A stretch of DNA of 16,061 nucleotides from a virus. Its lineage: Duplodnaviria; Heunggongvirae; Uroviricota; Caudoviricetes. Positions 13,457 to 14,122 of the stretch are shown piece after piece (positions within the stretch are counted from its first letter, which is position 1; every line of letters begins with the position of its first letter). The stretch lies in the IMG/VR virus record IMGVR_UViG_2660238318_000012; one strand, given 5' to 3'. The notes beneath the pieces were generated by a model that was not told the DNA's origin, made no database searches, and saw only the letters and a list, made by a program, of their open reading frames with translations. Both the position numbers and the translations under genes were made by a program.

Positions 13457-13542
13457 AACGGCTCCTAGTTTACGTTGTTGGTTAGAAGCCCCGTTACTGC
13501 TCCTACAGTGCGGGGCTTTGCTTTTTGTGTTGATTGTGTGTA

Positions 13543-13558
13543 ATGTGTCACTACACAT
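13543..13558. promoter_or_regulatory. Palindromic candidate operator ATGTGT-CACT-ACACAT in the divergent promoter region
   Basis: Perfect 6-bp inverted repeat with 4-bp spacer, about 28 bp upstream of the Arc-like gene start; TGTGT-rich flank. Confidence 0.4.
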
Positions 13559-13585
13559 AAATACATTACCTGAGGTGTAATTAAC

Positions 13586-13765
13586 GTGTCAACACACAAA
13601 AACGAAAGGCGTGGTAATCCTCCGTTCCAGTTCCGTTTAGATCCTGACTTACGGGAAAAGATGGAAAAGGCACAACAACAGGACGGCGATGATTCTCTTG
13701 CTGCCTGGATAAAGCGAATAATCCGCAAAGAATTACAGCAACGCGGCATAGAACCCAAAGGATAA
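13586..13765 (+). CDS. Arc/MetJ-type ribbon-helix-helix DNA-binding protein, 59 aa, divergent from the replication operon
   Basis: GTG start with GAGGTG RBS 8 nt upstream; NPPFQFRLDPDLREKMEKAQQQDGDDSLAAWIKRIIRKEL fits the beta-strand, helix A, helix B layout of Arc-like repressors. Below the ORF-track cutoff. Confidence 0.65.
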   Translation: MSTHKNERRGNPPFQFRLDPDLREKMEKAQQQDGDDSLAAWIKRIIRKELQQRGIEPKG

Positions 13766-13822
13766 AAACTATCAGCGCCGTGGTGTGAGGTACTACGGCG
13801 CATTGCTTTACAGGCGCACACA

Positions 13823-13999
13823 ATGACCAACGAAGAATCAACCGAAAAAACATCACCTGCACGAAAAAGACGACGCAGAAAGAAAGAGCATGAATCAGAA
13901 CGATTCGCGCCGTGTTCTTTTGCCCTTGAGAAGTACCTTAAAGAATACTCATCAAAGGAGAGAACTTCGCAGTTATGGCAACGCACTGAACCAGACTGA
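13823..13999 (+). CDS. Possible second small plus-strand gene, 58 aa, basic N-terminus, weakly RHH-like
   Basis: ATG ORF with no clear RBS (ARKRRRRKKEHESERFAPCSFALEKYLKEY ...); lies between the Arc-like gene and the plus-strand terminator. Confidence 0.25.
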   Translation: MTNEESTEKTSPARKRRRRKKEHESERFAPCSFALEKYLKEYSSKERTSQLWQRTEPD

Positions 14000-14094
14000 T
14001 TGCATTGCCCACCAGCCTGATAGCGGCTATCATCCCCGTGCTTATGTTTGGGATCACACACACAAACGGCGCAGCGGGTTATCTGTTCAGAAAG

Positions 14095-14122
14095 GCGGCT
14101 CCATTTCGGGGCCGCTTTTTTT
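14095..14122 (+). terminator. Rho-independent terminator ending the plus-strand regulator transcript; also lies downstream of convergent alpA
   Basis: 8-bp GC-rich stem (GCGGCTCC/GGGGCCGC, one G-U pair), 5-nt loop, then T7. Confidence 0.6.

Follow-up and report, generated by a model that had tools for sequence, protein, structure and literature searches.

How is a satellite of the phage-inducible chromosomal island (PICI) type held silent in a Gram-negative host? Gram-negative PICIs have been described as 'transcribed unidirectionally', with AlpA as the activator and with a global repressor that is 'unclear', and their difference from the Gram-positive islands 'is a mystery' (PMC6092414). The initial annotation of the DNA studied here had named AlpA activation rather than a dedicated repressor for this group, in agreement with that paper. 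We analyzed the 16,061 nucleotides of IMG/VR virus record IMGVR_UViG_2660238318_000012 (the whole stretch, hereafter the window) and focused on the gap between the gene of an Icd-like protein (13256-13456) and alpA, which encodes an upstream activator (PMC6092414). In an entirely computational study, we identified in this gap an inverted gene for a small ribbon-helix-helix (RHH) protein, dyads at predicted promoters that vary together with the protein, a predicted antisense RNA over the start of icd, and a long minus-strand open frame. We consider it likely that 13438-14211 is the immunity/switch region of a capsid-forming PICI (cf-PICI) type satellite, and that a repressor, an antisense RNA, and AlpA-driven induction would together make up the whole explanation.

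A scan of one genome per species gave 80 loci, which represent about 30 genera. The order primase, first gene (icd) on the minus strand, RHH gene on the plus strand, and alpA and int on the minus strand recurs from Escherichia to Xenorhabdus, Gilliamella, Pasteurella, and Haemophilus, and in Xenorhabdus the RHH gene directly abuts alpA. DNA resembling the region is present in 1887 of 5426 complete E. coli genomes.

The RHH gene and its product

The 59-aa plus-strand gene that the initial annotation had singled out (13586-13765) is present in the list of open reading frames (ORFs) with a GTG start, and the ribosome-binding site described with it, GAGGTG, lies at 13572-13577, 8 nt 5' of the start. 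We found 117 homologues of its product, with identities of 51-98% and mostly a length of 59 aa, in Escherichia, Citrobacter, Serratia, Pantoea, Yersinia, Proteus, Xenorhabdus, Mannheimia, Frischella, and other genera. Among 25 distinct genes of class A (the class of the window protein, defined below), synonymous divergence (pS) was 0.73, near saturation, and non-synonymous divergence (pN) was 0.11; pN/pS was 0.15 in the plus frame versus 0.31 in the frame of the long minus-strand ORF, and the entropies at the three codon positions of the plus frame were 0.40, 0.19, and 1.12. Because of this ratio, the near-saturated pS, and the codon-position pattern, we regard the plus-strand gene as real, and by these sequence comparisons the 59-aa ORF is a conserved gene.

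The assignment of the product to the RHH type also held. The protein matched PHROG 228, 'Arc-like repressor' (E 2.1e-6), a PHROG that has no curated cutoff, and hhalign set its PPFQFRL on the DNA-reading beta-strand of Arc, PQFNLRW (E 0.0019, probability 14%). The AlphaFold monomer model (mean predicted local distance difference test score, pLDDT, 80.5) has helices at residues 20-33 and 38-52, and the protein has the beta-alpha-alpha arrangement of the RHH fold (~45 residues); no helix-turn-helix (HTH) match was found in it. Similarities to the NCBIfam families YlcI/YnfO and VapB were weak and below cutoff. In particular, the YlcI/YnfO model (NF041551) gave 20 bits (E 5e-4) against a curated cutoff of 30 bits, which leaves the window protein outside that family. 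Pfam searches with 41 homologues returned only sub-threshold DUF3950 and HicB matches, and PF13132 was found in 6 of the 41, the window protein not among them. A sequence profile search of the PDB returned no RHH protein, its sole match being a chance one to NsrR.

The C-terminal helix and tail are near-constant across the homologues (WIKRIIRKELQxRGIEPKG), and the N-terminal strand defines four classes: A, PPFQFRL (the window); B, YQMRL (O157); C, KQIALRV; and D, QYQIRL. Across the operator classes described below, residues 36-59 (13691-13765) and the stem-loop at 13775-13801 stayed near-constant, and the N-terminal half was swapped. This pattern suggests that recombination has a boundary there or that the classes have a partner surface in common.

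Class-specific operators and predicted opposed promoters

Between the two start sites, the initial annotation had placed a perfect palindrome at 13543-13558. The site was retained in our analysis and its perfection was not: it reads ATGTGT-CACT-ACACAT in the window, with perfect 6-bp arms and a non-symmetric 4-bp centre, and in relatives such as loci L012 and L018 the 16-mer is perfect. It belongs to a 21-bp element in two copies, 13541-13561 and 13582-13602 (direct repeat D3). The 21-bp pattern occurs twice in the 16-kb window versus 0.01 occurrences expected, and GTGTNNNNACAC occurs twice, and nowhere else in the window, versus 0.17 expected. We designated the two copies as predicted operators O1 and O2 (Table 1).

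The dyads change with the class of the protein. GTGTnnnnACAC was found in 43 of 44 class A regions, its copies lying at the start codon and at about -41 (-41/-40), and none of the 44 had the class B motif. Conversely, 11 of 12 class B regions had GGTAATTACC, at position -10 and at about -41, and none of the 12 had the class A motif. Class D carries TGTAATTACA (3/3 regions). Motif A was absent from classes B-D and motif B never appeared outside class B, while motif D was also found in 4 of the 44 class A regions, where the centre of O1 reads AATT, so that classes A and D are not cleanly separated. The palindromes of classes B and D sit at the place equivalent to O2. In all, a class-specific dyad in two copies was found for three of the four classes, and in classes A and B the copies have fixed positions. 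No other evidence in this analysis speaks as strongly for what appears to be a specific repressor-operator pair as this joint variation of reading strand and site, which argues for an autoregulated repressor of the icd-to-primase operon. Proteins of the RHH superfamily bind as dimers or tetramers to short inverted or tandem repeats at promoters; in the window, two class-specific dyads lie at predicted promoters, and the protein would bind there.

The initial annotation also had the gene facing the replication operon, and this arrangement was borne out, with predicted operators on both promoters. PL, the predicted promoter of the icd-to-primase operon, has as its -35 a TTGACA that is the complement of codons 1-3 of the RHH gene; in 74 of 85 loci, all classes included, the first base of the start codon is followed by TGTCAA. 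A -10 with at least 4 of 6 matches lies 16-18 bp away in 63 of 71 loci, versus 5/71 at two of three control offsets, and TAnnnT occupies this place in 39 of 71, versus 0-2 at all three control offsets. O2 fills the -35 and spacer of PL. On the plus strand, the best promoter is in the same place in most loci of classes A-C, with a -35 TTGnnn near -68 right 3' of the hairpin described below and a -10 at -47 to -41; O1 lies on the -10/+1 of this promoter, PR. The predicted starts of PL and PR are ~5 bp apart and point through each other. The two promoters overlap, and therefore polymerase would occupy only one at a time.

A predicted antisense RNA over the start of icd

The stem-loop at 13486-13518 had been read as a leader of the minus-strand operon. 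The hairpin exists, with an 8-bp outer stem (AAGCCCCG/CGGGGCTT) and an inner 4-bp stem, but it is no leader of that operon: it is more stable on the plus strand in 74 of 79 loci (mean -21.0 versus -16.0 kcal/mol), its U-run is on the plus strand, and its stem is kept through compensatory changes. Most likely, judging from these features, it ends a countertranscript that would mask the ribosome-binding site and start codon of icd, whose Shine-Dalgarno sequence is AGGAG (13466-13462). The predicted ~77-nt RNA begins with a stem-loop that carries CUCCU in its loop and continues into the terminator hairpin and the U-run. Its predicted -10, TATGAT, lies inside codons 5-7 of icd. The T, A, and T of TAnnnT are invariant in all 50 aligned loci, 9-11 nt before the complement of the start codon of the first leftward gene, and the middle bases, together with the opposite-strand residue that they encode, vary freely.

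In the window, the RNA has a minimum free energy of -30.4 kcal/mol (z -4.25). The RNAalifold structure consists of a 5' helix, then a small hairpin whose loop contains the anti-Shine-Dalgarno CCUC/CUCCU, and finally the terminator. In the alignment, 96.5% of the cells were paired and 15 of 22 pairs showed double changes; none of 500 shuffles did as well, and slid controls were ~40% paired. About 150 G-U cells are legal on the plus strand only, versus at most 38 cells that are non-standard on the plus strand. We read the element as an antisense RNA because of this covariation and the invariant -10; promoter, stem-loops, terminator, and overlap with the start of the target are all present for a cis-antisense RNA, and its expression is predicted from these features.

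We built a covariance model, R1, from the aligned sequences of the element. In loci outside the training set it scored 59 bits in EcCICFT073, 65-75 bits in five satellites of the YlcI/YnfO type, and 66 bits in locus L005; it scored 57 bits in prophage Sp7 of strain Sakai, which closely resembles a training sequence. No Rfam model matched at its gathering score anywhere in the window, and at E up to 10 nothing relevant appeared, the best match being an rnk leader at 24 bits. In 13200-14900, the models of C4 (RF01695) and isrK gave no match at E up to 10, and a CI RNA of the P4 type was not recovered. Separately, R1 had a weak match (19 bits, E 0.046) in Sakai prophage Sp6 (L088, 2257-2337, minus strand), opposite the start of a phage antirepressor gene. 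This match may be a relative similar to the sar RNA or a chance hit.

A long minus-strand frame through the region

A frame of 248 codons that the initial annotation did not mention (13465-14211) spans the whole region on the minus strand. It is in frame with alpA, no stop lies between the TAA of alpA and its own TAG, and this TAG falls inside the Shine-Dalgarno sequence of icd. In O157 and CFT073 the frame is fused in frame to icd, giving 314 and 428 aa, respectively. In 83 loci, the minus strand is open through the RHH gene over a median of 162 codons, with at least 200 in 38 loci and at least 300 in 26; the left end of this span lay at the Shine-Dalgarno sequence of the first gene or continued in frame through that gene. 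Antisense stops numbered 0.44 per 100 codons in the RHH genes, versus 3.3-6.9 in icd, alpA, int, primase, and DUF4222 genes of the same loci, and were 0.33 of the expectation from synonymous shuffling, versus 1.1-1.3 for the control genes. These depletions indicate that the minus-strand frame across the RHH gene is kept open by selection.

The product of the frame matched no protein family, and outside the overlaps with plus-strand genes the frame showed no coding pattern (7, 6, and 5 differences at the three codon positions; 4 synonymous versus 13 non-synonymous). On these two grounds, we rejected a protein function for the 248-aa frame. A parallel is found in satellite P4, whose eta frame (8168-8812) runs from the end of vis across the immunity region, contains the promoter PLE, and ends, by eye, in Kil/Icd-type sequence. 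When eta is translated, late transcripts can evade immunity termination (PMC10111431, citing Forti et al. 1999). By analogy, the minus-strand frame of the window is a split analogue of P4 eta: it too runs from the end of alpA across the region to an Icd/Kil-like gene. In EcCICFT073, the N-terminal part of the 428-aa frame (L087, 7767-8242, plus strand) carries a faint Bro-N signature (PF02498, E 0.069), which fits the 'Bro network' origin proposed for P4 eta.

Public annotations of this DNA are split. PGAP gives either small plus-strand genes or a minus-strand 'Icd-like pseudogene', Sakai has a 247-aa protein, ECs_1576, and elsewhere a BRO-N fragment is named; our results correct these entries. 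Because the RHH ORF lies inside the annotated ECs_1576, it was excluded from the 'intergenic' screen in Sakai, and the supplements of the Sakai ribosome-profiling paper contained no matching sequence.

Proposed mechanism and alternative explanations

From the gene, its fold, the class-specific operators, the promoter geometry, the covariation and strand of the RNA element, and the selection on the open frame, we infer binding and repression by the protein, the existence of the RNA, and the way in which AlpA would turn the region on. In the resident state, RHH protein made from PR would bind O1 and O2, so that PL is shut and synthesis of the protein itself is limited. This would silence the operon that runs from icd to primase and probably on into packaging. 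Such a repressor acting on two dyad operators is the step that we consider quite probable from the sequence. In addition, the ~77-nt plus-strand RNA would start ~7 nt after TAnnnT in the 5' end of icd, stop at 13486-13518, and pair with the Shine-Dalgarno sequence and start codon of icd on leftward transcripts, blocking translation; it would probably cause polarity downstream, as the C4 RNA does in P1. This second step, also read from sequence, seems reasonably likely to us.

Upon induction, a helper phage would raise AlpA, which activates its own promoter (PMC6092414). The alpA transcript would then run leftward past the one-way terminators, be translated through the eta-like frame, and deliver ribosomes to the start of icd, meeting PR and the antisense promoter head-on; the repressor would fall and PL would open. 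Both plus-strand terminators (Table 1) are weak in the leftward direction, and therefore they are predicted to act as one-way gates that leftward transcription from alpA can pass. We put this AlpA-driven step forward tentatively, on the basis of geometry and the precedent of P4. We regard as doubtful a wider proposal: that the module is the missing resident-state switch of Gram-negative PICIs and cf-PICIs. Its three layers would be a repressor whose DNA specificity has diversified into immunity types, a countertranscript over the first ribosome-binding site of the replication operon, and an eta-like frame that keeps AlpA-driven transcripts translated, and AlpA would flip it through convergent transcription, with no anti-repressor protein.

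Several observations weigh against the proposed switch. The loci are related by descent, so that the counts are not independent events and overstate independence. In the AlphaFold monomer, residues 14-17 form a short helix and no strand, as is expected of an RHH protein, in which the sheet forms only in the dimer. Foldseek E-values were ~1, no Pfam or NCBIfam model reached its cutoff with the window protein, and the operators of class C are heterogeneous. All promoters are consensus-predicted, and those of the window are weak: its PR scores 6/12, the -10 of its PL is GGTAAT, and a promoter scan at a threshold of 9/12 found none in 13457-13620. The third control offset (30-32) gave 47/71 matches to a -10, which means that -10-like hexamers abound in the region. 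EcCICFT073 is induced by AlpA alone, and reporters inserted behind alpA and in 'ORF3' require AlpA (PMC6092414). Because over-expression of AlpA is sufficient, the RHH protein is not a dominant block.

This last result also suits a narrower role, in which the RHH protein autoregulates only its own plus-strand cassette (the RHH gene, the 58-aa gene, and the 'Bro/dynamic zone' cargo found elsewhere) and the replication operon is transcribed solely from the alpA promoter. The stretch that separates the RHH gene from alpA varies and carries cargo in other loci (also PMC10111431), and PL is a prediction. We nevertheless judge this role quite unlikely, as the perfect TTGACA opposite the RHH start codon in all classes, the -10 at 16-18 bp, and O2 in the spacer are hard to explain without a leftward promoter. 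A toxin-antitoxin pair, with the RHH protein as a type II antitoxin and the 58-aa protein as its toxin, would account for the weak VapB and HicB similarities and for the co-transcription of two small genes. It is highly improbable: the 58-aa gene, which matches no toxin family, is missing in most loci, the RHH gene abuts alpA in Xenorhabdus, the operators overlap a divergent promoter, and a conserved adjacent toxin gene was not found. To the reverse idea, that the long minus-strand ORF is the only real gene and the 59-aa ORF its shadow, we give almost no credence. It is annotated in this sense in Sakai (ECs_1576), SS17, and STEC299, and in the PGAP 'Icd-like pseudogene', and the frame is open and depleted of stops. 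Yet pN/pS is lower in the plus frame, the plus-frame protein is 73-95% identical in other genera versus 44-72% for the minus translation of the same DNA, and the plus product has an RHH fold and matching operators, whereas the minus product has neither a family match nor a codon-position pattern outside the overlap with plus-strand genes.

Two further alternatives concern the hairpin at 13486-13518. The plus-strand RNA might be the 5' leader of the RHH mRNA from an upstream promoter, with the hairpin as an attenuator that sets the level of the repressor. The U-run of the hairpin overlaps the predicted -35 of PR, PR is weak in the window, and the geometry allows read-through into the RHH gene; against this, the hairpin is a strong canonical terminator and a PR-like promoter lies directly downstream of it in most loci of classes A-C. 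We consider such a leader unlikely, and either way the RNA would be antisense to the ribosome-binding site of icd. The initial annotation had instead compared the hairpin with P4 immunity by premature termination, which would make it a leader or attenuator of the minus-strand operon. It does lie within the predicted 5' untranslated region of PL, and the region matches the P4 immunity region in position, but for termination of this kind the hairpin is on the wrong strand. The minus strand has no U-run, its stem is ~5 kcal/mol weaker in 74 of the 79 loci, the G-U cells counted above are valid on the plus strand only, and the Rfam C4 and isrK models found no match, all of which makes this reading very improbable. 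The preferred explanation thus remains an RHH repressor with two operators and a terminated countertranscript, both aimed at the icd-to-primase operon. If the module is an off-switch of this kind, it would explain the silence of the island, it would define immunity groups among satellites, and operator swaps and -10 mutations would be simple handles for induction studies.

The surrounding island

The window starts with phoQ, and the satellite genes that follow are nearly all on the minus strand (Table 1). All 11 window proteins that we compared are 100% identical to those of a Shigella flexneri chromosomal locus (L006), and the phoQ/roxA site and the gene order are the same as in Sakai prophage Sp7, or O-island 51 (OI-51), which is the EcCIEDL933 type of cf-PICI (10.1101/2022.09.08.507074). 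As expected of a cf-PICI, the window carries int, alpA, primase, capsid, protease, connectors, HNH, and the small and large terminases (TerS and TerL); its ORF list showed no recognisable tail or lysis ORF. The portal was assigned by homology to the annotated gene of Sakai Sp7.

The Icd-like gene heads the operon that ends in the P4-family primase. By eye, its product resembles the C-terminus of P4 Eta, and the cI-ORF of P4 has the same 'transcriptional repressor' label as PHROG 1743/6196. A terminator-like hairpin with a U-rich tail (CACACAAACGGCCTTTGTGTG, 13401-13421, minus strand) lies 36-56 nt into the icd-like gene. We rejected it as a general attenuator; such a hairpin was present in 7 of 68 loci versus 4 of 68 in controls, and this one is confined to the E. 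coli allele. A 15-nt perfect inverted repeat was likewise rejected as a pair like seqA/seqB of P4, the O157 relative keeping 11 of the 15 bases.

Downstream of the RHH gene, the stem-loop next to its stop codon differs by one base in the O157 and CFT073 relatives. The family of the 58-aa protein has the conserved core EHESERFAPCxFxL, with EHESERFAPC invariant, and was found in seven E. coli satellites, always ~57 bp after an RHH or YlcI gene. The strong terminator that the initial annotation saw at the end of the plus-strand transcript was found again; on the minus strand it folds with -14.6 kcal/mol and a CUUUCUG tail. In E. coli 2013C-4282 (L001), two inverted cassettes stand in tandem, 3420-4010 and 4231-4671, the former with YlcI (101 aa) and a 75-aa protein and the latter with RHH (59 aa) and a 67-aa protein, and an antisense-RNA element precedes each (3210-3294 and 4088-4174; 62 and 78 bits). 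This sequence arrangement indicates that the module can be duplicated or exchanged as a unit.

Other observations concern the island itself. The major capsid gene (7683-8888, minus strand) apparently contains an in-frame stop (8013-8015) that divides it into a 291-aa ORF, which matches profile positions 1-166 of 280, and an adjoining 109-aa ORF, which looks like the rest. Either the island is defective for capsid formation or there is a sequencing error. A run of N at ~6130-6220 interrupts the portal ORF (6101-7069) with X residues in several frames and is an assembly gap. The DUF4222 gene (12292-12591, minus strand) corresponds in position to Sakai ECs1581 (RgdR), which is reported to activate LEE1, and by this correspondence the island may carry the same host-regulatory function. 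Esr41 was set aside, as it is located in OI-43, outside this island.

Table 1. Positions and supporting data of the features described in the text
Feature	Position in the window	Strand	Remarks
Terminases (large and small), HNH, head completion and connector proteins, portal, prohead protease, capsid		-	Pfam/NCBIfam matches; portal via homology
P4-family primase, DUF4222, several small ORFs, tyrosine integrase		-	Pfam/NCBIfam matches
Icd-like (P4 Kil-like) gene, 66 aa	13256-13456	-	First gene of the leftward operon; NF033153 E 6e-18; PHROG 29966/1743
Inverted repeat GCCGTTTGTGTGTGT / ACACACACAAACGGC	13410-13424 and 14056-14070		Arms 631 nt apart; one within icd, one shortly before the plus-strand terminator
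Predicted -10 (TATGAT) of the antisense RNA promoter	13438-13443	+	Inside icd codons 5-7; T, A, and T of TAnnnT invariant in 50/50 aligned loci
Predicted cis-antisense RNA, ~77 nt	13450-13527	+	Covers the icd start codon and Shine-Dalgarno sequence
Eta-like open frame, 248 codons	13465-14211	-	In frame with alpA; TAG stop inside the icd Shine-Dalgarno sequence, CTAGGAGCC
PR, predicted promoter of the RHH gene	13518-13546	+	-35 TTGCTT 13518-13523, 17-bp spacer, -10 TAATGT 13541-13546, start ~13553
Predicted operator O1, TAATGTGTCACTACACATAAA	13541-13561		Dyad core 13543-13558; over PR -10/+1 and the first bases transcribed from PL
PL, predicted promoter of the icd-to-primase operon	13565-13592	-	-35 TTGACA 13592-13587, 16-bp spacer, -10 GGTAAT 13570-13565, start ~13558
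Predicted operator O2, TAACGTGTCAACACACAAAAA	13582-13602		Spans the RHH start codon and PL -35/spacer
RHH (Arc-like) gene, putative repressor, 59 aa	13586-13765	+	GTG start; ORF list, homologues, selection, fold
Stem-loop just 3' of the RHH stop codon	13775-13801	+	Terminator-like, weak U-tract; -19.5 kcal/mol (+) versus -13.7 (-)
Second gene of the plus-strand cassette, 58 aa	13823-13999	+	PHROG 21027 E 3e-12
Intrinsic terminator closing the plus-strand transcript	14095-14122	+	-22.4 kcal/mol, z -3.9, U7
alpA (P4 Vis homologue), upstream activator gene	14269-14457	-	PF05930 E 5e-18; co-oriented with the operon

Comparison with known systems

The types of mechanism proposed here (an RHH switch, a countertranscript, and eta-like read-through) are familiar, and their combination and the setting in a Gram-negative PICI are undescribed in the literature that we searched. 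In this literature, of which our coverage was incomplete, we found no RHH, Arc, or YlcI repressor in a Gram-negative satellite. The regulators listed in the SatelliteFinder survey are AlpA, MerR, or Stl only (PMC10085698), the space after alpA has been treated as a Bro/dynamic zone with CI-type RNAs only mentioned (PMC10111431), and a 2026 survey calls YlcI/YnfO merely a 'prophage-associated protein'.

The Stl/Str module found in pathogenicity islands of Staphylococcus aureus (SaPIs), to which the initial annotation likened the layout, shares the proposed role of a resident repressor gene that faces a replication operon. Stl is a larger, unrelated protein of the HTH type. It is co-oriented with int and relieved by helper proteins, whereas in the window int and alpA are co-oriented with the operon, only the RHH cassette is inverted between them, and AlpA is the known route of induction; with this gene order, an RHH fold, and no HTH match, the region is not a Stl/Str module. 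In plasmid pMV158, where CopG and RNA II control copy number, copG is part of the rep operon, whereas the repressor gene of the window is divergent and belongs to an integrated satellite.

The same inverted slot contains a true YlcI/YnfO (DUF3950) gene in EcCICFT073 and in other E. coli satellites. EcCICFT073 has an inverted 59-aa YlcI/YnfO gene and a 62-aa partner between alpA and icd, together with two GGTGTGGCCCAC repeats and the antisense element. Both model elements, EcCICFT073 and the EcCIEDL933-type Sp7, contain an inverted RHH/YlcI cassette and this element. The window protein differs in its sub-cutoff score for the family, and its hhalign comparison with the CFT073 protein was not significant; the literature searched describes no function for YlcI/YnfO.

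The immI region of P22 encodes Arc and Mnt, small RHH repressors that act on closely spaced, opposed promoters (the overlapping Pant and Pmnt), and the sar antisense RNA of ~70 nt, which covers the ribosome-binding site of the gene it controls. The window resembles immI in its RHH protein with the PHROG name 'Arc-like', its predicted opposed promoters, and a predicted antisense RNA over the ribosome-binding site of its target. It differs in that the target would be an icd-headed replication operon and not ant, one repressor stands in place of two, and the similarity to Arc is marginal. In immI of P1 and P7, the C4 antisense RNA masks the ribosome-binding site of icd and silences the downstream genes by polarity. 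The window shares the Icd family match and, as predicted, an antisense RNA over the ribosome-binding site of icd; C4, however, is trans-acting and processed from the same strand, whereas the RNA of the window would be cis-encoded on the opposite strand, and the Rfam model of C4 does not match it.

The closest parallel in architecture is with P4. The immunity region of P4 also lies between alpA/vis and the Icd/Kil-like first gene of the primase operon, and there too a long eta-like frame with a promoter inside it extends from the end of alpA/vis to the Icd/Kil-like gene; its translation is considered to bring late transcripts past the immunity block (PMC10111431). In contrast to P4, the window has no match to CI, C4, or isrK RNA, and R1 finds nothing in P4. 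P4 has neither a protein repressor nor an opposite-strand gene here, whereas the window has an inverted RHH gene, predicted operators, and a predicted cis-antisense RNA. Judged by these sequence features, the region is a P4-type immunity region in which an inverted RHH gene and a predicted cis-antisense RNA have taken the place of the CI RNA.

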